Shown: positions 4,387 through 51,200 of the stretch, one piece after another
Layout of the letters: each line of letters begins with the position of its first letter
Position numbering within the stretch: the stretch's first letter is position 1
DNA from: Candidatus Omnitrophota bacterium
GTDB taxonomy: Bacteria > Omnitrophota > Omnitrophia > Omnitrophales > JACROU01
Assembly: GCA_029261035.1 (NCBI GenBank)
Contig: JAJDCD010000008.1
Location: 162,313 to 226,312, forward strand
Reading direction: 5' to 3'
DNA: 64,000 nt
Position numbers and translations under genes: made by a program
Notes under the pieces: model-generated
Told to the model about the DNA's origin: nothing
What the model saw: the letters and a program-made list of their open reading frames with translations, nothing else
The model's database searches: none

Positions 4387-5802
4387 TTACCCTAGCTCTT
4401 TTTTAATCTTACGCGCTAAACCATCTGATATACCCACAATTGAGCTTATTTCCTCAACCGAAGCTTTCTCTATTTTTTTGACAGACCCAAAATAATTTAA
4501 AAGAACTTTCTTACGAGTTTCTCCAACACCTTCAATTTTGTCCAAAACAGAGTCCGTCACCTTATTATCGCGTAATTTCCGATGATACTCTATAGCAAAT
4601 CGATGAGATTCATCCCTTACCTTCTGAAGCATATGTAACACAGGAGAATCTTTAGCTATATTTAAAGGCTTCGTAGAACCGACAGTGTAAATCTGTTCAA
4701 AGCGTTTTGCAATAGAAATTAAAGAAATTCCATCAAAACCCTCTTCTTGGAGCACTTTATAAACAGCATTCAAATGCCCCTTCCCACCATCAATTAGAAT
4801 AATATCAGGATCTAGCTCTTCCTTACTTTCTTTAAGGCGTCTCAGCATTCTACGAACCGCTTCTTGCATCATTGCATAATCGTTAATTTGCAGAACTGCT
4901 TTGATTTTATATCTTCTATAATCAAATTTATCCGGCATCTCACGATAAAAACTCACTTTAGATGCCACAGACTCACTTCCAAAAGTATTAGATACGTCAA
5001 AACAGACAATTCTTTCTGGATATTTATTTAACTTTAAAATTTTCCTTAATTCTGATGTTGCCGACAATGTCACTGACTTTTCTGGTTTTTTTATATGGAA
5101 TCGCTTTTTCTTTAAGTGGACCAAAGCCTGTATTTGCTCTTTATAAATTTGAGCTTCTTCAAAACAAAGCTCCTTTGCCGACGATTCCATTCTAAGTTGA
5201 AGGTATTCCACCAAGTTTCTTTTTCCCCCACCTAAAAAATCAGAAACCTCATCCATTAGTTCTTTATATTCTTTTTTAATATCTGGGAAAATACAAGGAG
5301 CTACACATTGCCCAATATGGTAATACAAACAAGCTGTTTTAGGTAAAGTCATACATTTACGAATAGGGAAAATAGTATGAATTAACCTCAAGGCTTCTCT
5401 CAGCAAACGAGCGTCGGTAAAAGGTCCATAATACTTTGATTTCTTATCTTTTTTCTGCCTCGTCATCATCAACCTTGGGAAAGTTTCATTTGTCATTTTC
5501 ACCAAAGGAAAACTCTTATCATCTTTCTGACGTGTATTATATTTGGGTTTGTGCTTGTTGATCAGTTGAGCCTCTAACAACAGAGCTTCGATTTCAGTGG
5601 GTGTTTCAATATAATCCACATCTTGAATTCGAGTCACTAAAACTTGAATTTTGGGCGAATGTCCTTCTTTGATAAAATAGGAGGACACTCTTCTTTTCAA
5701 AGAATTAGCTTTCCCTATATAAACAACCTCTCCTTCAGAGTCTTTCATCAAATAAACTCCAGGAGTCAGAGGTAATTTTTTTACTTTTTCTTTAATATCC
5801 AC
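4387..5802 (-). CDS. uvrC: Excinuclease ABC subunit C (compact, 471 aa)
   Basis: N-terminal GIY-YIG (PGVYLMKDSEGEVVYIGKANSLKRRVSSYF), UVR-like helix (ELCFEEAQIYKEQIQAL), RNase H-like region (RIVCFDVSNTFGSESVASKVSF) and a C-terminal HhH (IEGVGETRKKVLLNYFGSVKKI). Confidence 0.85.
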   Translation of the reverse strand: MDIKEKVKKLPLTPGVYLMKDSEGEVVYIGKANSLKRRVSSYFIKEGHSPKIQVLVTRIQDVDYIETPTEIEALLLEAQLINKHKPKYNTRQKDDKSFPLVKMTNETFPRLMMTRQKKDKKSKYYGPFTDARLLREALRLIHTIFPIRKCMTLPKTACLYYHIGQCVAPCIFPDIKKEYKELMDEVSDFLGGGKRNLVEYLQLRMESSAKELCFEEAQIYKEQIQALVHLKKKRFHIKKPEKSVTLSATSELRKILKLNKYPERIVCFDVSNTFGSESVASKVSFYREMPDKFDYRRYKIKAVLQINDYAMMQEAVRRMLRRLKESKEELDPDIILIDGGKGHLNAVYKVLQEEGFDGISLISIAKRFEQIYTVGSTKPLNIAKDSPVLHMLQKVRDESHRFAIEYHRKLRDNKVTDSVLDKIEGVGETRKKVLLNYFGSVKKIEKASVEEISSIVGISDGLARKIKKELG

Positions 5803-7343
5803 AAAAACAATCTCCTACTCTCCTCAACACGAAACAAGAAACTCAAAACCAAATAAACAATAACTCCACTCAATATAATCAACAAGAGATTAAACAGTTG
5901 ATTTAAAAAAGCAGCCTGAAAAAAAGAAAAAGCTACAATTCGATTTAATAAAACAACAACACCCCCCATCAAAACCGAAAGAAAAGCGACACGGGTTAAA
6001 TCAAAAACAATCTCTTTCACCCCAAAATCTCCCAATCGACCTCGAAGTATTATAAGAAGAAACAAAAAATGAAACAATCCTATTACCCCAGTAGAAACAG
6101 CAAGCCCTAAAGGCCCTCCCAGTTTTAAACATAAAAAATTTAACACCCCATTCAAAAAGAAACAAAACAAACCAATTTTCATAGGGGTTTTCATATCTTG
6201 AACACTATAAAAAGCAGAAACCAAAACTGGAACTGCAGAATAAAATAAAACACCACCCATATAACCCAAGAACATAGCTTGAGTCCTTAGAGTAGCTTCA
6301 TAAGTAAAAGCTCCTCTTTGGAACAAAATCTGAATAATAGGTTCTGAGAGAACCATCATCCCAACCATTGAAGGGAATACAATAAAAAAAATTCCTTTTA
6401 ATGAAATTCTTAATATTTCTTTTACTTTTTGAGAGGCTTGTGCTGCAGACAAACTTGAAAACTCGGGTAACAAGACAGTACTTAAGGCCGTAGCAAATAT
6501 ACTTAATGGAAACTGCATCAATCGAACAGAATACCAAAGACTTGAGCTTACTCCTTCTTGAGAAAAAAAACCAAAAATTAAATCCATAAAGAGATTCAAT
6601 TGCAAAACAGACATTCCAATTACTGCCGGAAATAATAACGAAGTAAAACGCTTTAAATTTTCCCCTCCCCAATTGAGCAAGGGAAACAATACATAACCTT
6701 TTCTTTTAACGGGAATCCACACACACAACATTTGAATAAGTCCAGAGAGTACTATGGAAGCACATAGCAATCGAAGAGTCTGCTCAGAAGTTTTTGATAA
6801 AAAAGAACAAACAAAGACAATCACAGAAACCCAGCAAACATTTAAAATAATAGGAGTAAAAGCAGGTATTAAAAATTGCTTCTCACTAAAAAGAATTCCC
6901 ATACTTACTGAAATTAAAAACAAAACGACTACGTATGGGGCCAAGACCTTCAAAAATATCAAAAACCAAAGCGCATCTTCCTGAAAACTAATTGTTCCTA
7001 TCAATAACTCCACGACGCAATAAAAAACTAAAAGAAAAAGAAGGCCTACAAAGAGAAATAAACTCCCTACCTGCCTAGCAAAACGTTCCGCTTCATTCCT
7101 GCCTTCCGTTTCTAACAAATCAGTAAAAATAGGCACAAAAGCACTAGTCAAAACACCTTCAGACACCAGACGACGCAAAATGTTGGGGAAAGTAAAAGCA
7201 AACACAAAAGCATCCCATATACGGGAAAGACCAAAAAAGTGCGCACTTACCACATCCCGAATAAGTCCTGTCACTCTAGAGAGAAAACTTAAAAAGGCCA
7301 CCCATCCCGTATTTTTAATTATTGCTTTGTTGGAATCAGACAT
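5781..7343 (-). CDS. murJ: Lipid II flippase MurJ (MviN)
   Basis: 520 aa, 12-14 predicted TM segments. N-terminal signature LSRVTGLIRDVVSAHFFGLSRIWDAFVFAFTFPNILRRL. Confidence 0.85.
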   Translation of the reverse strand: MSDSNKAIIKNTGWVAFLSFLSRVTGLIRDVVSAHFFGLSRIWDAFVFAFTFPNILRRLVSEGVLTSAFVPIFTDLLETEGRNEAERFARQVGSLFLFVGLLFLLVFYCVVELLIGTISFQEDALWFLIFLKVLAPYVVVLFLISVSMGILFSEKQFLIPAFTPIILNVCWVSVIVFVCSFLSKTSEQTLRLLCASIVLSGLIQMLCVWIPVKRKGYVLFPLLNWGGENLKRFTSLLFPAVIGMSVLQLNLFMDLIFGFFSQEGVSSSLWYSVRLMQFPLSIFATALSTVLLPEFSSLSAAQASQKVKEILRISLKGIFFIVFPSMVGMMVLSEPIIQILFQRGAFTYEATLRTQAMFLGYMGGVLFYSAVPVLVSAFYSVQDMKTPMKIGLFCFFLNGVLNFLCLKLGGPLGLAVSTGVIGLFHFLFLLIILRGRLGDFGVKEIVFDLTRVAFLSVLMGGVVVLLNRIVAFSFFQAAFLNQLFNLLLIILSGVIVYLVLSFLFRVEESRRLFLWILKKK

Positions 7344-7803: not shown

Positions 7804-7820
7804 TTTCAGTTTAAATAAAA

Positions 7821-7857
7821 AAGCCCTACACAATTAAATGTAGGGCTTTTTTGTTTT
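7821..7857. terminator. Bidirectional rho-independent terminator between convergent rpsT (+) and holA (-)
   Basis: Stem AAGCCCTACA / TGTAGGGCTT with a 8-nt loop, flanked by an A-run upstream and TTTTGTTTT downstream. Confidence 0.6.
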
Positions 7858-7861
7858 AAAA

Positions 7862-8869
7862 CTAACTCGTCCCCAACCTCAATAGCAACATTTCCACTGC
7901 CGCTTTAACAGATACTTTTCCTGTTTTAATTGCTGCATCTGTTTCAAAAAGAAGCTTAAAAGTTCTCTTTAACTTTTGTTCATTAAAGGAAGATAACTGT
8001 TGAACAAACCGGTTTAGAAAATAAGGTCTTATATTTAACTTTCGACCCAACTCATCTCTAGACCCTCCAGAAAGTAAGAATTTTTTACCTTCATATATCC
8101 GTTTCATCTGCCAATTCAAAAGACCTAAAAGCTCAGTGCTTTGATATGGATTTTCTTCGTAAAGATGAAAATAAATCTCAAACACCTCTGTGATATTTTT
8201 CTTAGACAAAGCCTCCGCTAGATCAAAACCTGTCGAATCATAAACCTGATCCCCCAAAGCTTCTACATGAGCCTCTGAAATAATTTCATCTGCGGGTACG
8301 TTTAAACTTAATTTTTCTAAAGTACTATTTAAAAATAATAAATTATCAGAACAGGTCTCTTCCAGAATTTTAGCTGCACCGGGACTCACTTTAAGATTCA
8401 AAGATCTAATTTTCTCACGAATAAATAATCGAATCTGCTCCTTTCGATTACTCCACCTCGACGAGCTTCCTTTATTCGGAGGCGCGTCCAGAACATTCGA
8501 CTCTCCTTTTACAGAATCAACAAAAGTATAAATCTTCTTTTTCCCTTTAACAATTTCTCCTTCTAAAAAAATAAAAGAAAAATGGGAAGGGTTTTTAAAA
8601 TATTTCTTCAACATCTCAAAATCCCCTTCTTTCATCAATTCTGCACCCTTGATCCAAATAATTTGTTTTTCTGAAAGGAAGGGGTATGTTAGAGCTTGCC
8701 TAAGAACAACTTCCCAATCTATGTCTTTCATGTAATAGAGGAAAACAGAGTCCTCTTCCCCTGATGAAAGAATTTGATGCTTCTTTTTCTGTAAACAGTT
8801 TTGAGTTAGATAAGGATCGCCTACGGCAAGGGTAAGTAAAGGAAGTGAGGTTGTACTTTTTTTAGTCAT
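7862..8869 (-). CDS. holA: DNA polymerase III delta subunit
   Basis: 335 aa. Size and C-terminal helical domain (LFETDAAIKTGKVSVKAAVEMLLLRL) fit HolA, and it sits downstream of an LptE-like lipoprotein as in the conserved lptE-holA arrangement. Confidence 0.6.
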   Translation of the reverse strand: MTKKSTTSLPLLTLAVGDPYLTQNCLQKKKHQILSSGEEDSVFLYYMKDIDWEVVLRQALTYPFLSEKQIIWIKGAELMKEGDFEMLKKYFKNPSHFSFIFLEGEIVKGKKKIYTFVDSVKGESNVLDAPPNKGSSSRWSNRKEQIRLFIREKIRSLNLKVSPGAAKILEETCSDNLLFLNSTLEKLSLNVPADEIISEAHVEALGDQVYDSTGFDLAEALSKKNITEVFEIYFHLYEENPYQSTELLGLLNWQMKRIYEGKKFLLSGGSRDELGRKLNIRPYFLNRFVQQLSSFNEQKLKRTFKLLFETDAAIKTGKVSVKAAVEMLLLRLGTS

Positions 8870-15660: not shown

Positions 15661-15972
15661 TTATTTTTTAATTTTTAGGAATTTTACCTTAGAATAAACC
15701 CAAAGAATAACTACAAAAGTAATAAAAGAAAAGCCCATGAAGAAATCTTCTATCGGAATAGTCCCAATACGAAACCCTGATATAGCATCTGATCCATAAA
15801 GAAATACGGGGCGTGAAGTAAGATAACCATTAACTATCAACTCTGCAAACATCATAACAGCAATAAAAATCAAAAACTTTAAATCCTTTAAAACATATGT
15901 CTTAAGAACTAAATCAAGAATAACAACAACAAGCACTGAGAGCAAGCCAAAGAGAGTATAACTAGGAATCAT
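15661..15972 (-). CDS. Lycopene cyclase domain protein, one half of a heterodimeric CrtYc/CrtYd-type cyclase
   Basis: 103 aa, 3 TM segments, and the characteristic PxE(E/D) motif (GTIPIEDFFMGF). Overlaps its partner by 11 bp at the end of the carotenoid cluster. Confidence 0.55.
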   Translation of the reverse strand: MIPSYTLFGLLSVLVVVILDLVLKTYVLKDLKFLIFIAVMMFAELIVNGYLTSRPVFLYGSDAISGFRIGTIPIEDFFMGFSFITFVVILWVYSKVKFLKIKK

Positions 15973-16291
15973 TTCGTTTCTCCCCTAGACGCACTCTGAG
16001 TTGAATAACCTCATATGTAAATATAGAAATAAATCCCAGGAAAAGAAAAAATAGATACTCTTCAATAGGTAAACCCAATAGTTTTAAACCCAATATATAA
16101 TCTGGATTAAAACTCCAATGTCCTTGATGAGACGCAAAAATATCCCACAACAAATAAATTGTTGATGGCAATAAAATAGAAAACAACATTGATTTCCAAA
16201 ATCGATACAATTTCAGATCACGATGATTTGCAACAATAAGAGGTATGCTTATACAAAGTATTAAAACAATAAAATATAAATATTTAATCAT
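15962..16291 (-). CDS. Lycopene cyclase domain protein, the second half of the heterodimeric CrtYc/CrtYd-type cyclase
   Basis: 109 aa, 3 TM segments, PxEE motif (LGLPIEEYLFFL). Confidence 0.55.
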   Translation of the reverse strand: MIKYLYFIVLILCISIPLIVANHRDLKLYRFWKSMLFSILLPSTIYLLWDIFASHQGHWSFNPDYILGLKLLGLPIEEYLFFLFLGFISIFTYEVIQLRVRLGEKRNDS

Positions 16292-17034
16292 GAAACAGCC
16301 TGAGTTTTAATCTTTCTAATACAAACTATTGCCACAGAAATAAAAGCAAAGCTTAAAAAAGTAGGTAAATAAAAACCCTTCAATAAAATACTCACACTAA
16401 ACAAAAACCAAAGAAGAAAATAAACAACTCCAGGAACCCAGTCCAATTGATCCCAAGAGCGCTCCTCAGGAGTTTGAATAAAAAGCAAAAGACAGAAACC
16501 AAAAACAAACCAGCTTACATAGTTTGATTTAGGAATCACATTCCCCTCCCAGATCCAATAATTAAAAACAGATGTCGCAAATGGCTCTAATACAATATCA
16601 AAAGCCAAAACAAATATAGATGCAAAAAGCGCCAATAGAAGCGGAGAGGCTTTGCCCCTAAATAACTTTAAAACCAAACCATAAGAGCTAACTACAACCA
16701 AATACCACGCTAGGCCAATTAATATGGGGACACCATAGACAGAATAGCTCAAGGCATCTGTGTAAGTATATTGCCCAAAAGGGATTCCTGTATGCACTCC
16801 CAATAGCTCTATTCCAATAGCAGAAAGAACAATTAAAAAAAACTGAGAAAAAGCTCTAGACCAAGAAACGTTAAGCGCTGCCCATATAAAAATAAGTATA
16901 GAAAAGAGGATCAGTGAAACAGAAGACGTAAACGCCCATGTCTCTGGAAGCTTATCAAAAGCTACAAAGTAAAGACTGAATGGAAATAAAAAAATAGAGA
17001 GATAAGTTAAATATAAGCAAATTTTCTTAAGCAT
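16288..17034 (-). CDS. Polytopic membrane protein, possibly a CruF-like carotenoid 1',2'-hydratase / carotenoid biosynthesis membrane protein
   Basis: 248 aa with ~7 TM segments, Trp-rich, embedded in the crt operon. The assignment rests on context plus size and topology. Confidence 0.35.
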   Translation of the reverse strand: MLKKICLYLTYLSIFLFPFSLYFVAFDKLPETWAFTSSVSLILFSILIFIWAALNVSWSRAFSQFFLIVLSAIGIELLGVHTGIPFGQYTYTDALSYSVYGVPILIGLAWYLVVVSSYGLVLKLFRGKASPLLLALFASIFVLAFDIVLEPFATSVFNYWIWEGNVIPKSNYVSWFVFGFCLLLFIQTPEERSWDQLDWVPGVVYFLLWFLFSVSILLKGFYLPTFLSFAFISVAIVCIRKIKTQAVS

Positions 17035-17602
17035 TAACCGCTTCCAATTCTTCTTTTGAGTTTAGAATAAATTCATTTAACATTTTATCCAACATCTCTT
17101 TAACGCGTTCACTCAAGAACTCTTCGCCCAATAAGGGGGCCATCCAATGAAATTTCAACCCATTAGAACGTGTGAATTTTAAATTCATAGAAATATTTAT
17201 TTGACTTTCATTATTCGGTTTAGGTTCTACTTTAATTTCACATCGCATAAAATCCTCTGATTCTTTAGGAGATGTGAATATCATATGATTCGAATTTAAA
17301 ACTTCTCTTTTAGAAATAAAGGTCCCTGTCATATCTCTAGCCATTGGCACAGGAATTTTTAAATCCCAAAGAAAATCCTCTCCCTTCAATTGTTCGATAC
17401 TCTCAATCCCTGGCAAGTTTCTAGAAATAAATTCAGGACTATTAAATGCCTGTAATTGATCCACGGAACGCGGCACTTCATATGTGACAGAAGTATTCGC
17501 ATTAACCACAAAATCTTTTGCATAGACACTCATAGGAATCAAACAAAAAAAACTAAAAAACAATAGACACCTTATTCCTCTAAACATAACATTCTCCTTC
17601 AT
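17027..17602 (-). CDS. Secreted hypothetical protein inside the carotenoid operon
   Basis: 191 aa with a signal peptide (MKENVMFRGIRCLLFFSFFCLIPMSVYA). No recognisable domain. Confidence 0.4.
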   Translation of the reverse strand: MKENVMFRGIRCLLFFSFFCLIPMSVYAKDFVVNANTSVTYEVPRSVDQLQAFNSPEFISRNLPGIESIEQLKGEDFLWDLKIPVPMARDMTGTFISKREVLNSNHMIFTSPKESEDFMRCEIKVEPKPNNESQINISMNLKFTRSNGLKFHWMAPLLGEEFLSERVKEMLDKMLNEFILNSKEELEAVNA

Positions 17603-18294
17603 TAGTTAATCTTCAATGACCCAAAACTATCCACAATAGAAAACCGTGCAAACAACTCTTCCTTATACCAATTTTCATCTCGAGTTCTTTTAATAACTCT
17701 TTTATGATCTTTACTATTATAAGCAAACTCCATCAAAGACTCTTCATTGTCCCATACACTAAAAGTAGCCTGTCGAAACCACGGAATCTCCCCAAAACCA
17801 ACAGAATGTCTCAGTCCTTTCATCGTCTCTAAGGAACGACTCACAGGCTCTACTTCGCTCCAAAATTGTGTCATACGACTCAAATGAATCGTAGCACGTG
17901 TCAAAATAGCAATAGGCCCATCTCCTTGACCCATCTCACTCGCTAAAAACAGACCGTCTCCATCCCATTTTCCAGCAGAACGTGTCGGTTCTAAAGCAAT
18001 CCATCCTAATTCTGTAGAACATTCTTCAAAGCGCTTATATATCCACGAGGTCTCTCTAAATCGCTCCCAATCCTCTTTTGACTCCCATGTGGTAAACAAA
18101 ACATACCGACTCCAATTTGGCTTCACACTAAACCCCAAACCACGCCCAGTGCCCCCCACCTTAGAAAACAAGAGCCCCTTAACCCGACTCAACTCCAAAG
18201 GATCCAAACCCGCACGCACAAATGCCAAAGGAACAAACCTCTTAGGATACTTCACAACAACAAACACAGCAAAAGAACTCAATCTCGACATCAA
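17602..18294 (-). CDS. CrtA-family carotenoid oxygenase (spheroidene monooxygenase / 2'-hydroxylase-like)
   Basis: 230 aa. Blocks ILTRATI, QATFSVWDNEESL and the C-terminal ELFARFSIVDSFGSL recall Rhodobacter CrtA (VLTRATV, ATFSLW, DLFARFEV..G). Confidence 0.5.
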   Translation of the reverse strand: MMSRLSSFAVFVVVKYPKRFVPLAFVRAGLDPLELSRVKGLLFSKVGGTGRGLGFSVKPNWSRYVLFTTWESKEDWERFRETSWIYKRFEECSTELGWIALEPTRSAGKWDGDGLFLASEMGQGDGPIAILTRATIHLSRMTQFWSEVEPVSRSLETMKGLRHSVGFGEIPWFRQATFSVWDNEESLMEFAYNSKDHKRVIKRTRDENWYKEELFARFSIVDSFGSLKIN

Positions 18295-18458
18295 ACCGCC
18301 TCATTCGATATTATTAGACCCACCTATAAGACAATGGAAAAAGTAAATCCTAAAACAACTACTCCATCCCATCAAAGGCGTAATCCCAATATTTCTAATA
18401 AATAGCAAAAACAAACAAGCATTTCGTTATTCAAAATAACGAAATAACATTAAACCAA

Positions 18459-18492
18459 GGAAAGAAGAGCCCTCGATGGCGCTCTTCTTTCC
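18459..18492. repeat. Perfect 12-bp stem hairpin (GGAAAGAAGAGC, 10-nt loop, GCTCTTCTTTCC) in the intra-operon spacer
   Basis: Read directly from the sequence. It is GC-rich relative to its surroundings. Confidence 0.5.
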
Positions 18493-18526
18493 AACGCTCC
18501 ACACTCCCATTTTACATTAAAGTCAT

Positions 18527-18620
18527 AAAAAAGATCTTCCCGCCGCGAGTTCACAAAAGCGACAGGCACCTTAGGTGACGGTCACTTTTGTGCTGTCTGA
18601 GCGCCGGGAAGATCTTTTTT
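18527..18620. repeat. 94-nt palindromic element: perfect 16-bp terminal inverted repeats (AAAAAAGATCTTCCCG / CGGGAAGATCTTTTTT) flanking a 62-nt core with nested palindromes (CACAAAAG...CTTTTGTG, GTGACGGTCAC)
   Basis: Read directly. It overlaps the stop codon region of the GT2 gene and sits 230 nt upstream of the CrtA-like start. Confidence 0.5.
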
Positions 18621-19751
18621 ATGCCCAACCCCACTCAAATAAACCCTCCCCTTCCAAGAAGCCCCCCTCTTAAAAACAAATATTCTAACAGAATTTAAAG
18701 CAATCACTAAAAACAGAATCATAGAAAATACATGAACAAAACAAGAAATAAGCCCTAACTTAAATCGAACCGCTAAAACAACCCTTATAAAAATAGCCAT
18801 CCCAACCATAATCACAGGAATAAAAATATCACCCCCCTTATAAACCCCTATCCCAATTTGAACATAAGGAAAAACAAAGAGAAAAAAACAAAGCATCATA
18901 AAAGCAAATATCCCTGGCAAGGAAAAATTAAATCCCGGAAATAAATTTTTAGAAAAACCTTCAAATATCCCTGAAAAATCTTGATACATACGACATTGAA
19001 CCAAAGCGAACCCATCTTTTATTAATAATTTCGACTTTATCTCTTTAACTCTCCTTGCCAACCAAACATCCTCAACCAGCTGATCTCGCACAGCTAAATG
19101 CCCTCCAATTTCTTCATAAACAGCCTTTTCAAACAACATAAACTGTCCATTCCCCATAGACAAGCTTGGAGTTTTTAATTGCGTCACAAGCCCAAAAGGA
19201 AGAAATAAAAATTCCATAAAGTGGAGCATCGGTAAACACAAACGTTCCCACAAACTCCCCATTTTTATTTGTGTAATCAAAGTCAAAAGGCCCCCACGCT
19301 CTTCTTTTAGAGTTCTTACAGAAGCCTTTAAACTCCTTGGATGATGCTCCGTATCTGCATCTGTGAACAAAAGCAACTCCCCATGAGCCTCTAGAGAAAG
19401 TTGGTGACACGCATAACATTTTCCTAACCACCCTTCAGGAAGATGATCCCCAGAGATTAATCTTAACTTCTCTACCCCAGCTCCGACCCTATTCACGACC
19501 TCATAGGTTCTGTCTTCAGACCGATCATCATAAACTAAGATTTCAAAATTTGGATAATCTTGATTTATCACACTATTAAGACAACGCTCTATATTCTCTT
19601 CTTCATTTCTTGCGGGGATAAGGATAGAAACAAATGGGTAAATTTCTAACTCTTGTTTTAAACCTATTCTTTTAAGCGCGAATAGATTCCAAAGAAAAAC
19701 AACAAAAAGACCCAATGAAATTGCTAATAATCCTAAATTAAAATAAATCAT
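18582..19751 (-). CDS. Family-2 glycosyltransferase, CrtQ/CruC-like carotenoid glycosyltransferase
   Basis: 389 aa. GT2 motifs (ILIPARNEEENIERCLNSVINQDYPNFEILVYDDRSEDRT, LLFTDADT) with C-terminal TM segments, inside the crt operon. Confidence 0.65.
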   Translation of the reverse strand: MIYFNLGLLAISLGLFVVFLWNLFALKRIGLKQELEIYPFVSILIPARNEEENIERCLNSVINQDYPNFEILVYDDRSEDRTYEVVNRVGAGVEKLRLISGDHLPEGWLGKCYACHQLSLEAHGELLLFTDADTEHHPRSLKASVRTLKEERGGLLTLITQIKMGSLWERLCLPMLHFMEFLFLPFGLVTQLKTPSLSMGNGQFMLFEKAVYEEIGGHLAVRDQLVEDVWLARRVKEIKSKLLIKDGFALVQCRMYQDFSGIFEGFSKNLFPGFNFSLPGIFAFMMLCFFLFVFPYVQIGIGVYKGGDIFIPVIMVGMAIFIRVVLAVRFKLGLISCFVHVFSMILFLVIALNSVRIFVFKRGASWKGRVYLSGVGHKKDLPGAQTAQK

Positions 19752-19757
19752 TCAAGT

Positions 19758-20501
19758 TTACCTTACCGAGTTTTGAGTTTTAGTACGAAATAAATCTACT
19801 TGAGAACTAATGGACTCTCTTCCTTTTTGAATTGTTATAAAATCTGAAAACTCTTTCTGAATCACAGCATCTCTTAATAGATCTAATTGAAAAATTAGTT
19901 TTTGATTCAGCTCTACATTTAATTCTTTCATATCTAAAAGAGAAGAATCTTCAATATATTGAACGGGTCCAAATTCTGTAAAAATCTCAGGTCGTTGCTC
20001 TTGAATAAATTCATAACGATGTGTCACTGGAACCAACTGAACTTTTCTTAATTTTTTTATGATATGAGTTACACCAGAAAAAAACTGAATAGGCCTCGCA
20101 TCATTTGGAGACATAACTCCTTGAGGATATATCCAGAGTGCATTTCTCCTTCCTTTAAGTTCTTCTACAGCATATTGAATGGATTGCATTGCTTTTCTGC
20201 TATCACCGCGATCGACACTAAAAGCACCAATCCATCGAAAGAAAGCATATTTTCTTAGCTGTTTAATATCCATCATCAAGATCGTATCCAATTCAAACAA
20301 CTTGTACGTCATATAAAAACAAAGAAGTCCATCCCACCAATTACTATGATTAGCATAAAAAATAATTGGAATATTTTTATCTAAACCTTTTAAATGCTCT
20401 AAACCTCGAACACGATGCGCATAGAAAAGTTTTGCAAGCGTACGTTGTGTCCACCATAAAAAGAATTTTTCAACAATAGGTAATTTATTCGTTTTAATCA
20501 T
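19758..20501 (-). CDS. PlsC-family acyltransferase, CrtO/CruD-like carotenoid-glycoside acyltransferase
   Basis: 247 aa. HX4D motif (ANHSNWWDG) and a PlsC-like fold, inside the crt operon. Confidence 0.6.
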   Translation of the reverse strand: MIKTNKLPIVEKFFLWWTQRTLAKLFYAHRVRGLEHLKGLDKNIPIIFYANHSNWWDGLLCFYMTYKLFELDTILMMDIKQLRKYAFFRWIGAFSVDRGDSRKAMQSIQYAVEELKGRRNALWIYPQGVMSPNDARPIQFFSGVTHIIKKLRKVQLVPVTHRYEFIQEQRPEIFTEFGPVQYIEDSSLLDMKELNVELNQKLIFQLDLLRDAVIQKEFSDFITIQKGRESISSQVDLFRTKTQNSVR

Positions 20502-20508
20502 AAAACCC

Positions 20509-22014
20509 TCATGCGGATACTTTTAAGTCTTCTTGAACCAAATTTGAAACCATTTTAGCAGAAAGTAAGACGAGAGGAATACCTCCTCCAGGATGAGTAC
20601 TTCCCCCGACAAAATAAAGCCCTTCAACCTCTTCACATCGATTAGAAGGTCTATTAAACGCAGACCATGGACTGTTCGAGGAAAGCCCATATAAAGAACC
20701 TCTATAGGCCCCATAATTTTTTTCAAATTCTAACGGAGTCCATATTTTTTCGTAACAGATATTACTATTTAACCCGCTCAAACCGGCTATTTCTAATTGA
20801 TGAACAATCAAGTCTCTATACTTATACTTTTCTACGTCCCAATCAATCTTAGAACCTTCGCTTATGGAAGGAACGTTCACCAACACAAACAAATTACTAG
20901 TCCCATCAGGAGCTAATGTAGCATCACTTTTCTTAGAGATACTCACATAAATTGTCGGCTCCGGGGCAGGAATCTTTTGCTCAAAAAGAGCCTCAAACTC
21001 TTCCTTATAATCTTTAGAGAAGAAAATATTATGGTGCGACAAATTCGGATATTCTTTTTTTACTCCAAGTTGCAAAACAAATCCGGAAGTGGACATATCA
21101 TTGCTCTTCTCTAACTCTTTCAGGTTTTTATTTAATTGGGAAGAGGGAATTAATCTCTTATAAACTTGTAACGCATCTGTGTTTGCTATTATCTTCTCTG
21201 CTTCCAAAACCGATCCATCTACTAATTCAACCCCTCTAACGGCTCCTTCTTCTACTAAAATCTCTTTAACCACTTGTTCTTTCCGGATCTCTACACCAAG
21301 CTCCACTGCAAACTGTTCCAAAACCTCAACCAATTTGTACATTCCTCCTTTAGGATACCAACCGCCCATCGTATGTTCAATATAAGGGATGATGGAAAAA
21401 GTTGCCGGAGTTTTATAAGGTGAAGAGCCATTATAAGTCGCAAAACGATTAAATACCTGTTTAAGTCTCTCATCTTTAAATGTGCTAGAAACCATTTGGC
21501 TTAAAGTTCGAAATGGATCCAACTTCCAAAATTGAAGAAGTGATTTCCAATGAGTAAGAAAAAACTTTGGGCCCCAGCTTCCATTACTCTCAAATAAAAA
21601 TGGTTTTGAAGCAATAGAGTAAACCCGCTTCCCATGATTTAAAATTTTCTTAAAAGATTGCACCTCATCCGGGTTAAAAGCTTCCAGATAAGAATATGTT
21701 TTATCCATATTATTAGAAATATCCAGCTGACTGCCATCTGAAAAAAAATAACGACACAGTGGATCGACTGGCATCAGATCTAAATAGTCTTCTATTCGTT
21801 TTCCTAAATTTTCAAACAAATCTTCCAAGACAAAAGGCATCGTTAATAAAGTTGGCCCACAATCAAAGGTAAAACCACCCTCTTTGATTTGACTTAACTT
21901 CCCACCCAAATATCCGTTTTTTTCTAATAAAGTTACCTTATAGCCTGCGTGAGATAAATAAAGGCTACTAACAAGCCCTCCCAACCCACCACCAACAATA
22001 AGCACTTTATTCAT
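20509..22014 (-). CDS. crtD: CrtI-family carotenoid desaturase (CrtD-like 3',4'-desaturase)
   Basis: 501 aa. N-terminal FAD fold (VLIVGGGLGGLVSSLYL) and the C-terminal CrtI-family signature FVGGSTHPGGGIPLVLLSA. Confidence 0.7.
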   Translation of the reverse strand: MNKVLIVGGGLGGLVSSLYLSHAGYKVTLLEKNGYLGGKLSQIKEGGFTFDCGPTLLTMPFVLEDLFENLGKRIEDYLDLMPVDPLCRYFFSDGSQLDISNNMDKTYSYLEAFNPDEVQSFKKILNHGKRVYSIASKPFLFESNGSWGPKFFLTHWKSLLQFWKLDPFRTLSQMVSSTFKDERLKQVFNRFATYNGSSPYKTPATFSIIPYIEHTMGGWYPKGGMYKLVEVLEQFAVELGVEIRKEQVVKEILVEEGAVRGVELVDGSVLEAEKIIANTDALQVYKRLIPSSQLNKNLKELEKSNDMSTSGFVLQLGVKKEYPNLSHHNIFFSKDYKEEFEALFEQKIPAPEPTIYVSISKKSDATLAPDGTSNLFVLVNVPSISEGSKIDWDVEKYKYRDLIVHQLEIAGLSGLNSNICYEKIWTPLEFEKNYGAYRGSLYGLSSNSPWSAFNRPSNRCEEVEGLYFVGGSTHPGGGIPLVLLSAKMVSNLVQEDLKVSA

Positions 22015-22522
22015 GAGATGAGTTTTTTAAGGTTAGTTGATGATAACGTTTTTTTAATGCAGAAGGAACAATCGGAAACAACAATCCATAAGGTTCTCCA
22101 CCAAATAAATGATGAATACGATGAGAATGATAATGCCAAGAGAAAATATTTTTCTTTATACGAAAAAATGGGATTCTTCCATGAACCACAATATCATGAA
22201 TTAAAAAGTAAAGAAGCCCATATGCTGTAATACCAAAACCGAAAGAAATTAAATATTTCAAACTCGGAACAAAAATACCTAAAGCAATAACAGACATAGT
22301 TATTAAAGCTGAAATTCCTGGATAAAAATCATTCAGCTCCCACCCATTGCTCTTAGGAGCAAAATTATGAATCAGCTTTTTCTGGCCTTCTCTTCGATTA
22401 TGACTCGAATGATGACTGCGATGTAAAGGAACGCCAAATCCATGGAAGATGTAGCGATGAGACAAATAGGTGATAGGCTCCATAACAACTAAACCTAAAA
22501 AGAACAAATAGACCTCAACCAT
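22007..22522 (-). CDS. crtZ: Beta-carotene hydroxylase (fatty acid hydroxylase superfamily)
   Basis: 171 aa with four histidine boxes (HRYIFHG, HRSHHSSH, HDIVVHG, HSHRIHH) and membrane helices. Confidence 0.7.
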   Translation of the reverse strand: MVEVYLFFLGLVVMEPITYLSHRYIFHGFGVPLHRSHHSSHNRREGQKKLIHNFAPKSNGWELNDFYPGISALITMSVIALGIFVPSLKYLISFGFGITAYGLLYFLIHDIVVHGRIPFFRIKKNIFSWHYHSHRIHHLFGGEPYGLLFPIVPSALKKRYHQLTLKNSSHE

Positions 22523-23404
22523 TTAAGATCTCCTATTCATTAGATACTGAACAAATCCTTTTAGATTATCCTTAGCTTCAGAAGACTGAATCTGTTGCAA
22601 ACACTGAATTGCTTCTGACAAGTATTCCTTAACCTTTTTCTCAGCAACATCAATCTTAGCCATTTCTCCATTAACTCCCAAAGTCCCTACCCAGGTCGTT
22701 TTGTTGTTTTTCTCATCCAAACTAGTATCTTTACCTGTTTCTTGACTACAACCCACCAAATCAAGCAAATCATCTTGGATCTGAAAAGCAAAACCTAAGG
22801 ACCGTCCGAAAGAACCAAACAAGTCGACATCTTCCTCAGGAGATCCTCCTATAATTGCTCCTGATTTTGCTGCAAAATAAATAAGGGAGGCCGTTTTCTT
22901 TTCAATAACTTCAAGAAGTGCTTCTGGGGTTAAAACTTTACTGTCGTTGACCCACTCTTCCAAAGCCTGGCCTTCACAAAGCTCTTTATACGTCTGATTC
23001 ATTAAATGCAGCACCGAAACATTATACGGCTCCTTCAGTCGAAACATTTCTTCATAAGCTAAAGAAACCAAGAAGTCTCCGCACAAAAGCCCCATCTTAT
23101 CTCCATAAGCAGCATGCACTGTAGGCTGCCCTCTTCTCATCGAAGCAGAGTCCATCATATCATCATGAATCAGTGAAGCCGTATGCAGCAACTCTATTGC
23201 TACTGCCGCAGGAAGAGCTTCTGAAACATCGCCTCCTACAGCTTCAGAAGAAAGAAGGGTAATAATAGGACGAACACGTTTCCCTTGCTTTAACAAACTC
23301 TCCAAAGGTTCTTTCATTGGACTGGATCCTAATGATTCCGTAATAACATTCAGTCGAGTCTGAACTAATTCTCTATAACTATCTAAAATGTCTGGGCAAT
23401 TCAT
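22523..23404 (-). CDS. crtE: Geranylgeranyl diphosphate synthase (polyprenyl synthetase)
   Basis: 293 aa. First and second aspartate-rich motifs LIHDDMMD and FQIQDDLLD. Confidence 0.8.
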   Translation of the reverse strand: MNCPDILDSYRELVQTRLNVITESLGSSPMKEPLESLLKQGKRVRPIITLLSSEAVGGDVSEALPAAVAIELLHTASLIHDDMMDSASMRRGQPTVHAAYGDKMGLLCGDFLVSLAYEEMFRLKEPYNVSVLHLMNQTYKELCEGQALEEWVNDSKVLTPEALLEVIEKKTASLIYFAAKSGAIIGGSPEEDVDLFGSFGRSLGFAFQIQDDLLDLVGCSQETGKDTSLDEKNNKTTWVGTLGVNGEMAKIDVAEKKVKEYLSEAIQCLQQIQSSEAKDNLKGFVQYLMNRRS

Positions 23405-23430
23405 ATCTATGGATTACACTCCTATAAACT

Positions 23431-24312
23431 TTATGCTCTTTTGCTTTTAAAACAGAGTTGAACTAATAATAATACTTTTTTCCAAAAAGAGACATAAACT
23501 CTTCCGGACAACACATCATAGTTTTTCGCCTCAATCTCATCTAAAATCTTTTCATACAAACCACTCATAACACGAACACAAAAACGTGAGCTGACTCCAT
23601 TCAACATTCCAATCCCTTTATCTGCTTCTCTATAAAACTGCCGTGCTCTTTGAATTTGAAATTTTCCAAAAGGAATAAATTTACTCGATACATGTTTATG
23701 AGCAAACTCAGAAGCATCAACTCCGTAAGAACTCAATTCTTCTTGAGGTAAGTAGATACGTCCCATATCATAGTCTTCTTTTACGTCCCTTAAAATATTA
23801 GTTAACTGCATTGCTTTACCCAGTGAAATTGCATACGGATAAGCCTCTTTAGACGAAACTCCAAAAACATGACTCATAATCAATCCTACAACAGAGGCAA
23901 CTCTATAACAATACAAATCAAGCTCTTCCCACGTATTATACCGATGCTGGGTCAAATCCATCTCAACACCCTTAATCAAATCAACCCAGTATTCCTTTGG
24001 TATTTTATGAGAAATTACAACTTCTTGAAAAAGACGAAAGGGAGATTGCTTCTCAAGAATATCAGAATATACAGAATCCAATATTGCATACAAAGCTGCT
24101 GCATATTTTTTCTTTTCTTCTAAGCTCGCTGTCTCTTCATCTAAAAGATCATCCGCATAACGACAAAAACTGTAAATCACATAAGCGGCCTTCCTCTTCT
24201 TAGACGACAGCATAAAGGATGCGAAATAAAAGGTTTTCGCGTGATGCCTCGTATATTTCGCAGAAGCTTTCATTAAATCCATCTCAGGATAATCCGAAAG
24301 AAAAGGCTTCAT
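23431..24312 (-). CDS. crtB: Phytoene synthase
   Basis: 293 aa. Squalene/phytoene synthase motifs YCYRVASVVGL and RDVKEDYDMGRIYLP. Confidence 0.85.
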   Translation of the reverse strand: MKPFLSDYPEMDLMKASAKYTRHHAKTFYFASFMLSSKKRKAAYVIYSFCRYADDLLDEETASLEEKKKYAAALYAILDSVYSDILEKQSPFRLFQEVVISHKIPKEYWVDLIKGVEMDLTQHRYNTWEELDLYCYRVASVVGLIMSHVFGVSSKEAYPYAISLGKAMQLTNILRDVKEDYDMGRIYLPQEELSSYGVDASEFAHKHVSSKFIPFGKFQIQRARQFYREADKGIGMLNGVSSRFCVRVMSGLYEKILDEIEAKNYDVLSGRVYVSFWKKVLLLVQLCFKSKRA

Positions 24313-25799
24313 AAATTAAAATCTTCCACGATACACTTATCCGTCGCCTCAGATGACAACAAGACGCCAGGCACGCCACCTCCAGGATGAGTACCCGCCC
24401 CAACAAAATAGAGACGCTCGATATCTTCACTGCGATTATGAGGTCTAAAATAAGCGCTTTGCATCAATCGGGGTTCAATAGCAAAAGCATTCCCTAAATG
24501 AGAGTTCAGTTTATTCTTAAAATCATCCGGTGTAAATACTTCCATCACCTCTATATTATCCTTCAGACCTTCCATCCCCATCTTTTCTTCTAAACGATCC
24601 AAAACTTTATTTGTAAAAGGCTCTATTTCTTTTTTCCAATCAATTCCACTTTTTAGATTAGGAACCGGAATCAACACATACAAACTTTCGCAACCCTTAG
24701 GAGCCATATTAGAATCACTTTTTGTTGGGGCATGTAAGTACATAGAAAACTCCTCAGGAATAATCTGCCGATCAAAAATATCTTTAACTAATTCTTTATA
24801 TTCTGAACCCAAAACAATCGTATGATGTTTCAGCTGAGGAAATTGTTTCTTAACACCCAAATAGAGCAAAACACAGCTCATGGTCATGTGAATTTTATCA
24901 ATTCGTTTATCTGTCCACTTTTTTCTCCATTTAGAATCAATCAGATTCTTGTATACAATAGGAATATCAGCATTACACACAACACAATCCGCCTTTAAAA
25001 CTTCGTTTTCTAGCTCAATTCCTCGAGCAACTCCATCTTCAACGACAATTTTCTTTACTTCCGTATGAGTCCTTACCGTCCCCCCTATTTCTTTAAAAAC
25101 AGATTCCATCGCTTTTACTAAACTATACATTCCCCCTTTCGCAAACCACACTCCTCCTACTTTTTCAAGATAAGGAATCATCACATAGACGCTAGGAGCC
25201 TTCCAAGGAGAACCTCCAATAAATAGCGGATGAAATGAAAACATAAACCGATGGAACTCATGTTTGAAATACTGAGCTGTAAAGGAATAAACAGGTAGGA
25301 AAGCTTTCAACTTGATTGCCTGTGGAGCAAACTTAAGCATAGAACCCCAACTCATAAAAGGCTGCGCTCCTAAACCATCCGTAATAATGGCATCATACAC
25401 CCCTTTAATATCCTTAAAAAAAGCATCGTAACGATCTGCGTCTCTTTGACTATAACAAGCCATTTGGGATTTAATATTTTCAGCATTCCCATTGTAATCA
25501 ATGTACTTACCATCACTAAAGTAGATTCTGTAATAAGGATCTAAGGACTCTAACTCAACATAATCTGAGAGTTTTTTTCCAGCCAAAGAAAAAAGCCGTT
25601 CTATAATAAAAGGAGCTGTAATTAAAGAAGGCCCCATATCAAAGGTGTAGCCTTCTTTCTTAAGTTGATAAGCCCGACCTCCAACCTGCTCTCTCTTTTC
25701 AACCAAAGTAACATCAAAACCTTTAGCTTGAAGACGAATCGCAGAAGACAGCCCTCCAAACCCCGCACCAATAACAATCGCTTTTTTTCTTTGTTCCAC
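24309..25799 (-). CDS. crtI: Phytoene desaturase
   Basis: 496 aa. Dinucleotide-binding site VIGAGFGGLSSA and the C-terminal FVGAGTHPGGGVPGVLLS. Confidence 0.85.
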   Translation of the reverse strand: MEQRKKAIVIGAGFGGLSSAIRLQAKGFDVTLVEKREQVGGRAYQLKKEGYTFDMGPSLITAPFIIERLFSLAGKKLSDYVELESLDPYYRIYFSDGKYIDYNGNAENIKSQMACYSQRDADRYDAFFKDIKGVYDAIITDGLGAQPFMSWGSMLKFAPQAIKLKAFLPVYSFTAQYFKHEFHRFMFSFHPLFIGGSPWKAPSVYVMIPYLEKVGGVWFAKGGMYSLVKAMESVFKEIGGTVRTHTEVKKIVVEDGVARGIELENEVLKADCVVCNADIPIVYKNLIDSKWRKKWTDKRIDKIHMTMSCVLLYLGVKKQFPQLKHHTIVLGSEYKELVKDIFDRQIIPEEFSMYLHAPTKSDSNMAPKGCESLYVLIPVPNLKSGIDWKKEIEPFTNKVLDRLEEKMGMEGLKDNIEVMEVFTPDDFKNKLNSHLGNAFAIEPRLMQSAYFRPHNRSEDIERLYFVGAGTHPGGGVPGVLLSSEATDKCIVEDFNL

Positions 25800-25959: not shown

Positions 25960-26607
25960 TTAAATTTTAATGTTAAAAACCTTACCTGAGGACTTTTCTC
26001 TGAGCTGAATACCTTTAGAATTAACTCCCACCAAGACGAATCCATCTAGCTCTTCACCCATCTCTAATATCTCATCACCAATCATTGCTGCCTCATTTCC
26101 AGCTTCATCAATAATTCCAGTAACTTTAAATTTACTCTCAACTCTACGACTTGCGCTGGCTTCTTGAGGTAAAACAACAGGTTTTTTCTCAACAGGAGTT
26201 ATCACAACGGGTCTAGGGCTAACAGGAACAACCGCAGACTTACTCCCTGTTTCTATTTTAGGGCCTGTAACCACAGAAATATATGACTCCTTATACTTTT
26301 CCTTCAAGATAGGTTGAACATAATATTGAAAAATAAAAAAACAAAGCCCCACTAATGCAATCAGCAACCCTCCAAAAAGAATATAAGAAAATTTTGATGC
26401 TTTTTTATTACTGTCAAACTCTCCAATAGGCTCGACCAGAACAGGCTCAGCATGAAAATCCTGCTCTTCGGATAAACTAGCAGTATCTTCCGAGTTATCC
26501 CCTGAAAGGTTATTGCTAGGAACTCTAGATAACACAGATTGATCCTGAGATCCTTTACCTTTTTTTTCAAGTTCTGCTTTTTTAAGAGCTTCTGTAATAA
26601 TGCTCAA
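25960..26607 (-). CDS. GspB/ExeB-like bitopic partner of the ExeA ATPase
   Basis: 215 aa: cytoplasmic N-terminus, one TM (FSYILFGGLLIALVGLCFFIF), then a Pro/Val-rich periplasmic region. It lies 12 nt downstream of the ExeA-like gene. Confidence 0.35.
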   Translation of the reverse strand: MSIITEALKKAELEKKGKGSQDQSVLSRVPSNNLSGDNSEDTASLSEEQDFHAEPVLVEPIGEFDSNKKASKFSYILFGGLLIALVGLCFFIFQYYVQPILKEKYKESYISVVTGPKIETGSKSAVVPVSPRPVVITPVEKKPVVLPQEASASRRVESKFKVTGIIDEAGNEAAMIGDEILEMGEELDGFVLVGVNSKGIQLREKSSGKVFNIKI

Positions 26608-48241: not shown

Positions 48242-51200
48242 TTAGGCTGCTATAAGGACCTTACGCATATTCTGCCATTCCTGAACAAGGTCTTGAAGAA
48301 TCTGAGGCAATAACAGTAAGGTGTTAGAATCACGGTCTCTTTGAAATAATTCCAGCAAAGCAGATCTGTTTTGAGCGACATAGAAAGAAGCTGCTAGATA
48401 AGCTCCACGATAATCAGAATCACGGCTAAATTTTTCTGCCTCAAACTGAATTCTTAAATCGCCTTCTTCCCAGTCTGCGGTGTTAAAAGAGTCATTCAAA
48501 AATACAGACTCTGCTAAATTAATTCCATTTGGAAAGTAAGGTCTTAAAAAGAACATCGATTTTTCTAAAAGGGCTTCAACATCTTTTGATAACATCTGTG
48601 TCATAGGTCGTTTCCACAAAAGAAGGGCAACCCGATAATCTTTCCAAAGACGCATCACACCTCCATACTCTCGAGCAATATCCGATATCTGATTTTTATC
48701 TGAAACTAAAAACACAACCATATTCGCTTTATTACCATCCCGCACATCCTCATCTCTTCGAGTTAACTCTTGTAATACTCCTTCTGTATTCGAATTCAAC
48801 TCCATAAAAATCGGAGTAAGATTTCTTTGCTCTTGAACAGAGTGAAGAATTACTTGAGCTTGCCCCAAACTTTGTCCTGTTGCAGCCGCTGCTTGTCCTG
48901 CATTCGAAAGCTGCCTTGAAATTTGTTGAAGCAGCATAGCCGTATGGTCTTGTGGGGTCCCAAACCCTAGAACACTCACATTCCTAAAGGAGTCAGAAGC
49001 TGTTTGAAAACGTGCGCGAACAGTACTGTTTCTTCTACCCACCAAAACATGCCGCCATCTTCCTGTTACAGCAAGAGCAAAGTTTAGATATGCTTTTTCT
49101 TCTTCTATCTTACTTGCTGCTAGAGCCGTTCGCACTTGTGTTCCTGTCATCTCTTCAGCAGCAGCATTTGCTCCGGTAATAATAAAAGAGTATCTAGCCG
49201 GAATCACTCTTCCAGACAGTTTCTCTGTCTTAAATATTTCAAGACCTCGAAACCAGTTTTTAGCGCGTAACAAACTTACTTGTTGCAAATTCTCATCAAC
49301 AATATCTCTTTCATCATTAATCCTCAAATCATAGTTAAGCGCTTTAAGAAAATGATGTTCTAAAGACATCCAAATACGAGCATCAGAAACTCCTGAGTAA
49401 TCGTTCTGATTAGAACTTCTAACTTTAGACCAAACAACTCTCATTTGTTGAAAAGCTCTTTCTGCTAATTCATTCGCTTCATTTGACCCCGTTTTATATA
49501 TATTAAAAGCCCTCTGGTCTGTTCTTAGTGCCTGTTCATCAATACTAGGAATATCAGACCACTTTGCATAAGCTTCTAACAAGTTAATATCCGCCAACAC
49601 CTTTAATGCTTGTATTTCAGCAAAACCTGCTGGGGTATTCACATCCCCCACAAATCCAATTCCACCTCTTGCTATTTGCTCACCAGACCCTGTTTTAATG
49701 ATTCTAATTTGAGCATCTGTTGCTCCCATACTTTTCATCCACTGCTCTATACGAGTTCGAGCTCCATCAAAATTATTATCCGCAGCTAAATAATACGCTT
49801 CCATAGGATAAGCTTTCTGAACCCAAGTAGATTGAGGATAAGCCGTCCTCAATGACTGCAACTCCGAAAGTGCTGTAGCATACTCACCGTTATATGCCGA
49901 TAAATGGGCTATTGCCCACAAATATTCTTGATGTTCTGCTGGAGTCAGTTGTTTGATTTCATTTTCAGTAGCTAGATTTTTAAGCGCTCTCACTTGCTCT
50001 AAATAATCATCAAGAGTTAAGTCGGATCTTAGTTTTTTCAGTAACGCTAATTTCACTTTAACGTGATAAAACCTAAGAAAAGAAAGATAAGCTCTATCTG
50101 AATGCACTGAAAAATGATTGCTAAATTGCCTATCAAAGCTTGTTAATGCATCCTTGTTAATAGAAGCATCCTCCAAGCCTTGTTTAACTAAAATCAAAAA
50201 TGAAACTAACCCTCTCAATTGTCGAACTTTTGTCTCAAGAGTTGTATCTTTTCCAATTAATTTATCTGACGCCTGATCTAACAAGTTTTTTGCATCTGCC
50301 CATTCCCCTGATTTAATTTTAACCTCAGCCTGAGCAATCAAAGCCCTACCTTCTTCAATTTGAGAGGCTCTTCTCTGTCTTTGAGCATCTAAAGCAATAC
50401 GCGCTTGATACTTCCTCCAACCTTCTGTTATCAAGTAAAACGCAGCCCCTCCAAGTAAAACAACAGACAGTAATGCCCCTAACACTAACTGCCCTCGTCT
50501 TTTTCTTAGACTTCTTTTTCTTTTATCTTTCTGCGCTTCCACATTACGATTTTCAAGAAAATTTTCAAGATCTTCTGCTAATTCAACAGCCGAAGGATAT
50601 CTACTCTCTTCACTTTTTTCCATCGTCTTAATAATTATTTCTTCTAAGTCTTTAGGTATTGCCGGGTTAATTTCACTAGGCCTTTTAAAATCATTAAGCA
50701 TAATTGCTGACATAAGCATTAAGGAAGAACTCGCAGTAAAAGGAAGCTGCCCCGTTAACATGTAATACAAAATAGCTCCTAACGCCCAAACATCGGTAGG
50801 TGCCTTTGCATCCCTAGCCAAACCCGTTGCTTGTTCTGGAGACATAAATGATGGAGTTCCTATGACAGCTCCTGTTCTTGTTAACTCCTCAGCTCTGGCC
50901 TTTGATGTCAACTTCGCCAAACCAAAATCTGTAACATAAGGAACACTCCCTTCCCCTAAAAGGATATTTTGAGGTTTTAGATCTCGATGAATAAAATCTC
51001 TTTTATGCACCCTTGCCATAGCTTCAACAATTTGTTTAAACAACACCGTTCTATCTCTAATAAGCTTCTCAGCTTCTTTTGATTTAGGTTTACTTGGAAT
51101 AATTTCCCCCTGATCTATCCACCGTCTTATTTGCTCTTCTAAATCCCCGCCCTCGACAAACTCCATAACAAAAAAGGGCTCTTCCTTGCCCTCTCTTAAT

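Follow-up and report, generated by a model that had tools for sequence, protein, structure and literature searches.

The 3' end of a CruC-like carotenoid glycosyltransferase gene (GT2; hereafter cruC) in the window, by which we mean the whole 64-kb stretch of DNA analyzed (positions 1-64000), is made up of a palindromic insertion that is lineage-specific and supplies the last codons and the stop codon of the gene. The feature is real and striking, and it is of an ordinary kind. We interpret it as a MITE/REPIN-like foldback insertion that may now act as an RNA 3'-end hairpin and that would have split a formerly tight operon, a reading to which we assign a probability of roughly 0.45. The parts of the element, in window coordinates, are as follows.

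18524..18623, minus strand: whole hairpin, an imperfect palindrome of 100 nt that forms a long hairpin once transcribed
18527..18542, no strand: left perfect arm, 16 nt, AAAAAAGATCTTCCCG, which includes the 8-nt self-palindrome AAGATCTT
18605..18620, no strand: right perfect arm, 16 nt, CGGGAAGATCTTTTTT, whose minus strand encodes K-K-D-L-P of the CruC tail
18524-18546 / 18601-18623: extended inverted repeat, 23 nt, 96% complementarity
Outer stem: 23 bp, interrupted by a single G-G mismatch; next come an internal loop, the 20-nt inner stem and a UAA-containing apical loop
18552..18592, minus strand: inner nested hairpin, arms 18552-18571 / 18573-18592, 20 nt, 85% complementarity
18526..18527, no strand: left-edge TA, matched by a TA at 18620-18621; possible TA target duplication
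AAAAAGATCTTCCCG: end sequence of the element
18582..18584, minus strand: cruC stop codon TGA, within the 5' arm of the inner hairpin
18512..18514, minus strand: candidate ancestral cruC stop, an in-frame TAA that would end cruC at ...VGHMTLM* without the 94-nt element

The perfect 16-nt terminal inverted repeats reported in the original prediction are present exactly as described, the arm at 18527-18542 having its reverse complement at 18605-18620, and they belong to a near-perfect palindrome of 100 nt with a nested inner stem of 20 nt. The 62-nt core, said to be GC-rich, has a G+C content of 56% as against 36.8% for the window. The palindromes that had been noticed inside the core, CACAAAAG/CTTTTGTG and GTGACGGTCAC, all lie within the inner 20-nt repeat, in which one mismatch can pair as G-U, though only on the minus (sense) strand. 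A T-run in both orientations had also been claimed, and we found a six-A run at one end of the element and a six-T run at the other; the A6 run of the left arm is the complement of a U6 run that directly follows the stem on the transcribed strand. Like MITEs, the element has terminal inverted repeats (16 nt perfect, 23 nt at 96%) and is small and non-coding (~92-100 nt, with stops in all six frames and a longest open frame of 27 aa). A TA duplication is found at the insertion sites of Correia elements. The TA flanks of the window element are themselves palindromic and form part of the extended inverted repeat (CATA...TATG), hence a target duplication and an extension of the palindrome look the same here.

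The stability of the hairpin is well beyond chance. Folding, which the original prediction had proposed as a check, gave a single long hairpin with a free energy of -59.9 kcal/mol on the transcribed minus strand (z = -9.6; 0 of 200 shuffles folded as well) and of -52.9 kcal/mol on the plus strand. The sense strand is 7 kcal/mol more stable than the antisense strand because the G-U pairing is available on the minus strand only. When both strands of the whole 64 kb were folded in sliding windows of 110 nt (mean -16.8 kcal/mol, sd 5.9), this was the strongest structure by ~19 kcal/mol, the next best being a tRNA at -40.0 kcal/mol.

A palindrome of this kind could be suspected of being an assembly or sequencing artefact, that is, a foldback chimera in a metagenome-assembled contig, and the CruC protein is indeed recorded from a single NCBI contig of 465,966 nt, with no other member in its 90%-identity cluster. 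However, foldback artefacts are perfect and usually sit at contig ends, whereas this palindrome has internal mismatches and an asymmetric internal loop, measures only 100 nt, and is interior to a long contig, with the cruC reading frame kept open up to its stop. We consider an artefact highly improbable.

The element had been described as embedded in a carotenoid operon, and it does lie inside a 12-gene carotenoid cluster (15661-25799). All genes around it are on the minus strand, which places it at the 3' end of cruC on that strand. The genes of the cluster and the features of the gap downstream of cruC are listed below in the order of transcription, all on the minus strand.

24309-25799, minus strand: crtI-family gene
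23431-24312, minus strand: crtB-like gene
22523-23404, minus strand: polyprenyl synthase gene
22007-22522, minus strand: hydroxylase gene
20509-22014, minus strand: second desaturase gene
19758-20501, minus strand: acyltransferase gene, CruD-like
18582..19751, minus strand: CruC-like carotenoid glycosyltransferase (GT2) gene, 389 aa, conserved region ending at Y371 (WKGRVY)
18295..18581, minus strand: non-coding gap from cruC to the crtA-like gene, 287 nt
18459..18492, minus strand: second gap hairpin, 12-bp perfect stem, -26.1 kcal/mol, U-rich tail; terminator-like
18421..18445, minus strand: third gap hairpin, A/U-rich stem of 11-12 bp, -9.4 kcal/mol, then U-rich GCUUGUUUGUUUUUG
17602..18291, minus strand: gene for a CrtA-family monooxygenase (spheroidene monooxygenase-like; NF045923, E = 1.4e-52)
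17027-17602, minus strand: gene for a 191-aa protein
16288-17034, minus strand: CruF-like gene
15962-16291 and 15661-15972, minus strand: two lycopene-cyclase halves

Throughout the cluster, adjacent genes overlap or are separated by at most 26 nt, with the 287-nt cruC-crtA gap as the sole exception. Past the element, a further 229 nt of non-coding DNA, with the two additional hairpins, precede the crtA-like gene, which starts with an ATG at 18291 and has a GAGG 8 nt upstream. The ~220 nt that hold the two smaller hairpins showed no similarity to anything searched; BLAST searches with the complete gap sequence returned no further match in the window and none in the relatives or in plasmids and phages, and no convincing promoter was identified in the gap. 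Among the 40 window ORFs of ≥150 aa, the crtA-like gene ranks first in both G+C content (0.424) and GC3 (0.381), exceeding the mean by ~2.6 sd (ORF means 0.367 and 0.288, respectively), and it is found in the clusters of only some relatives. This composition, together with the patchy presence, suggests horizontal gain or replacement of the gene. At the other end of the cluster, a 215-aa ORF upstream of the crtI-family gene (25960-26607) had no Pfam hit.

We examined what the element contributes to cruC. An alignment of 19 homologues shows that conservation in CruC stops at WKGRxY; beyond it come unconserved tails of 1-30 aa, so the element replaces a dispensable tail only. On the transcribed strand, the 3' end of cruC runs from ...WKGRVYLSGVGH into KKDLPGAQTAQK (18620-18585) and then into the TGA (18584-18582). 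The element thus accounts for the final 12 codons as well as the stop, and the original statement that the element covers the GT2 stop codon is borne out. The stop is located ~55 nt ahead of the U-tract. Deleting the 94 nt from 18527 to 18620 in silico left cruC in frame, ending ...VGHMTLM at a TAA (18514-18512) and with a tail of a length typical of the family; since stop codons are common in A+T-rich sequence, the restored in-frame stop is weak evidence for an insertion. The predicted pre-insertion (empty-site) sequence would read ...GTTGGGCATATGACTTTAATGTAA...

The relatives provide a view of the junction with no insertion. Setting aside the database entry of the GT2 protein itself (100% identity), its nearest match is only 50% identical. 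The cruC-crtA order is kept in four relatives in which the two genes nearly abut or overlap: they overlap in L127 (GTGA) and L129 (ATGA), are separated by ~7 nt in L126 if counted from the TAA to the likely crtA ATG (a 43-nt overlap as annotated), and are 14 nt apart on the contig that encodes P0125. In a fifth relative, L123, which has no crtA, 12 nt follow cruC. No hairpin was found at the junction in any of these five. The 287-nt gap of the window is therefore a lineage-specific, derived insertion, and the ancestral cruC-crtA junction, to judge from the gene order, was probably tight and translationally coupled. Because the relatives are distant (≤54% protein identity), the empty site is one of gene arrangement and not of aligned DNA. 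Of the origins that had been put forward, an insertion at the 3' end of GT2 is supported both by the variable tail after WKGRxY and by this difference in spacing. Two other origins were rejected. A recent insertion of crtA does not suffice as the sole cause of the gap, as crtA-bearing relatives lack the gap. An integron attC site or cassette boundary was dismissed as well, given that the hairpin precedes the extra gene instead of following it and that crtA occupies the same place in relatives. We also noted that the L123 cluster starts with a gene for a MerR/B12-binding (CarH/LitR-like) regulator (L123:74-979); no regulator of this type was recognized adjoining the carotenoid cluster of the window.

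The closest relative, L121 (50% GT2 identity; 35.6% G+C; from a 2.17-Mb JGI contig), presents a different picture. Here, the gap after cruC is 162 nt and contains a 97-nt palindrome with perfect arms of 28 nt, TGTCATCCCGGACTTGATCCGGGATCCA. Four copies of this element were found in the 13 kb that we examined, all at gene junctions of the carotenoid cluster (L121:1080-1172, 2130-2222, 5102-5218 and 7189-7285; 95-117 nt; -61 to -63 kcal/mol). Two of the four begin inside the upstream gene, exactly 16 nt from its end, and provide its stop codon, a TGA. Each arm is itself palindromic and forms a hairpin, so the element is REPIN-like. The third copy has an extra palindrome nested in its loop (L121:5146-5174, TGTCATTCCTGCGAAAGCAGGAATC), perhaps a smaller palindromic unit that landed within the first one. 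The four copies imply that multi-copy palindromes of the same size and stability colonize these positions in a related genome. Homology between the two elements was rejected: even with 3 mismatches allowed, TGTCATCCCGGACTTGATCCGGGATCCA was not matched anywhere in the window, and alignment revealed no homology. That the window hairpin and the L121 element both represent a wider, undescribed class of palindromic mobile elements of a poorly sampled low-G+C Gram-negative lineage, one that would prefer stop codons or coupled junctions, bring its own stop and terminator and split tight operons, is an idea to which we give poor odds.

Whether the window element is itself mobile depends in part on its copy number. 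There is one copy in the 64-kb window, which has no other dispersed repeat family, and one copy in all the DNA searched. Elements with the same arms were matched neither in viral contigs nor in plasmids and phages, and the arm sequences had no match in the literature. Among JGI metagenome contigs, a pattern with 12-nt arms had a single match (L125), which is unrelated. That locus, L125:640-757, was discarded as a copy because it duplicates, as a direct repeat of 74 nt, the 3' end of a gene for a FAD-linked oxidase on a high-G+C contig; the duplication carries an 'LNPGKIFP' coding motif, DPKGILNPGKIFP, and GGGAAGATCTTCCC is itself palindromic. In the genome collection, the loose pattern GATCTTCCCG N{45,75} CGGGAAGATC matched at least 120 loci; among the matches listed, none resembles the element, and nearly all are from high-G+C genomes such as Streptomyces. 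A search for proteins with element-donated peptide tails matched none, but as it likewise missed a known positive, the tail of P0001 itself, this negative has no weight. No transposase was recognized among the 40 window ORFs, and no Y1-transposase-like (RAYT) ORF was seen in the window. REP elements carry a GTAG or CGTC tag at an end (PMC3733652). The window element has no GTAG, and its sole CGTC is at the apex (GACCGTCAC, minus strand), not at an end. In a scan of the whole window against Rfam, only three tRNAs reached the gathering score, and a permissive scan of 18250-18750 gave best scores of 11-17 bits as against thresholds of 43-100, which is noise. The single copy and the missing transposase speak against our preferred reading, as does the fact that the element accounts for only ~94 of the ~310 extra nt at the junction. 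We infer a mobile origin from the inverted repeats, the empty site and the replaced gene tail, and it is probably a mobile foldback element, either decayed or of low copy number, that has come to serve as a terminator or 3'-end hairpin.

The RNA anatomy makes the second part of this statement plausible: on the transcribed strand, U6 follows a very stable stem, and two terminator-like hairpins stand behind it. The source genome uses canonical intrinsic terminators of the A6-stem-U6 form, as seen in the following example.

7810-7859: bidirectional terminator, A6-GCCCTACA-loop-TGTAGGGC-T6, -26 kcal/mol, after the gene ending at 7862

These same features would also be expected if the hairpin were a single-copy, non-mobile terminator or mRNA-stabilizing hairpin that never belonged to a repeat family and either arose locally or arrived with a transferred crtA, the donor's upstream terminator and promoter region having come along. 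Its single-copy status in all searched data, the position of U6 directly after the stem and the two further hairpins are all consistent with this account. So is the extent of the extra DNA, as the entire 287-nt gap is additional, beyond the hairpin; moreover, the top G+C and GC3 of the crtA-like gene and its presence in some relatives only fit a gene replacement by transfer. However, a stem of ~45 bp with an A/U-rich base and internal loops is longer than those of canonical intrinsic terminators, and together with the perfect 16-nt arms it far exceeds what termination needs: native terminators of the window have stems of 8 to ~15 bp. A scan with a simple terminator consensus did not call the hairpin. 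In addition, the hairpin overlaps the coding region and overwrites the native stop of the gene, which is typical of insertions and not of evolved terminators, and at this junction L121 has an element of like size that is demonstrably repeated. We therefore view a non-mobile origin as possible but rather doubtful.

The position of the stop codon raises another alternative, namely a dedicated cis-regulatory role for the RNA hairpin, as an attenuator or processing site that responds to translation and sets the ratio of cruC/cruD to crtA-cruF-crtY expression. In such a device the position of the cruC stop would matter, with ribosome release controlling folding. The stop does fall within the 5' arm of the inner stem, with the U-tract ~55 nt further on; the fold is more stable for the sense than for the antisense strand; and the hairpin sits inside the cluster at a branch point of the pathway (the glycoside-ester branch, cruC/cruD). 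A dedicated regulatory site would nonetheless be hard to reconcile with the lack of conservation, since a spacer is missing from five relatives and a sixth has an unrelated repeat there, and the Rfam matches at E < 10 were only noise. We judge this alternative improbable.

We return to the foldback insertion, for which the following sequence of events can be proposed. A small non-coding foldback element (~92-100 bp, with terminal inverted repeats of 16-23 nt) would have inserted into the dispensable tail of cruC, at what was once a tight, translationally coupled cruC-crtA junction. As every frame of the element contains a stop, cruC reads 12 element codons and ends at the element TGA, and the insertion would have left the conserved core of the enzyme intact. 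In the mRNA, a hairpin of ~45 bp would then be followed by UUUUUU. This hairpin and the two smaller ones would be likely to end or pause most transcripts after cruC, and the large hairpin would shield the upstream mRNA from 3' exonucleases and/or serve as an RNase III substrate, for which a stem of ~45 bp is an obvious candidate. An ancestral single operon would thereby have become two units, crtI...cruC and crtA...crtY, the latter relying on read-through or on a promoter within the gap. The cruC stop falls within the 5' half of the inner stem, where a ribosome that ends translation would delay folding, and the terminator may thus be translation-sensitive. The same position counts against a terminator role, in that a terminating ribosome would hinder folding of the hairpin in which the stop lies.

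Several known palindromic elements resemble the window element, and each differs from it in some respect. QMITE1 and QMITE2 of Coxiella burnetii (PMC5896051; reviewed in PMC10969869 and PMC2229807) are likewise small, non-coding elements with terminal inverted repeats that fold into very stable hairpins, and they too have inserted where functional genes end (3'), supplying the last residues and/or the stop. More generally, MITEs are known to overlap the 3' ends of genes and to donate C-termini and stop codons, and processing by RNase III has been proposed for QMITE2 (PMC5896051). The likeness is one of description: QMITE1 and QMITE2 are present in tens of copies per genome and have direct repeats, whereas the window element has one known copy and ambiguous TA flanks. 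Correia elements (CREE) of Neisseria are also similar, being ~100-150 bp long with inverted-repeat ends and lying by or within transcription units (PMC2649163). Their transcribed inverted repeats are RNase III substrates and change the expression of neighboring genes (PMC2649163); cleavage by RNase III and the terminator-like nature of SPRITE elements are described in PMC10969869 and PMC2649163. Correia elements, however, occur in >100 copies in an unrelated host and have an IHF site and promoter-forming ends; the likeness is again one of description.

REP and REPIN elements with their RAYT transposases (PMC2817692, PMC3733652) share with the window element their nature as extragenic palindromes at gene ends that form hairpins, of ~100 nt in the case of REP doublets, and roles in mRNA stabilization and termination have been proposed for them (PMC2817692, PMC3733652). 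The four-copy element of L121 fits this group well, each of its arms being palindromic. By contrast, the window element lacks the GTAG/CGTC end tag, its arms have a self-palindrome of only 8 nt, and the window has no visible RAYT gene. Rickettsia palindromic elements (RPE; PMC10969869) are palindromic and ~100-150 bp long as well, and they reside within coding sequence and are translated; they insert in frame and are read through, whereas the window element has stops in six frames and truncates or replaces the tail. Finally, Rho-independent (bidirectional) terminators and terminator-like repeats of the SPRITE type have the same layout of A-run, stem and U-run, as at 7810-7859. Relative to Rho-independent terminators, the stem of the window element is ~3-5 times longer and has internal loops and an A/U-rich base, and the element overlaps a stop codon inside a biosynthetic cluster.

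If our reading is right, the element would be a clean case of a small foldback insertion that rewrote the C-terminus and the stop codon of a gene, and of a translationally coupled junction broken within a biosynthetic operon, in a lineage without close sequenced relatives. It would bear on how selfish palindromes reshape operons. It opens no new mechanism, because MITEs, REPs and Correia elements have already been documented to behave similarly. A modest value for annotation would follow: the tail of CruC would be non-native and the carotenoid cluster would probably comprise two transcription units.

Two further observations concern the window at large. The minus strand encodes every one of the 40 ORFs of ≥150 aa, and the GC skew is negative across the window (1-64000); this unusually long co-oriented stretch includes the housekeeping genes secA, prfB-like, uvrC, murJ, leuS, greA and uvrA. 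In addition, the ORF at 48242-56818 encodes a protein of 2858 aa with two separate protein-kinase domains, Pkinase at residues 720-981 and PK_Tyr_Ser-Thr at residues 1804-2082.
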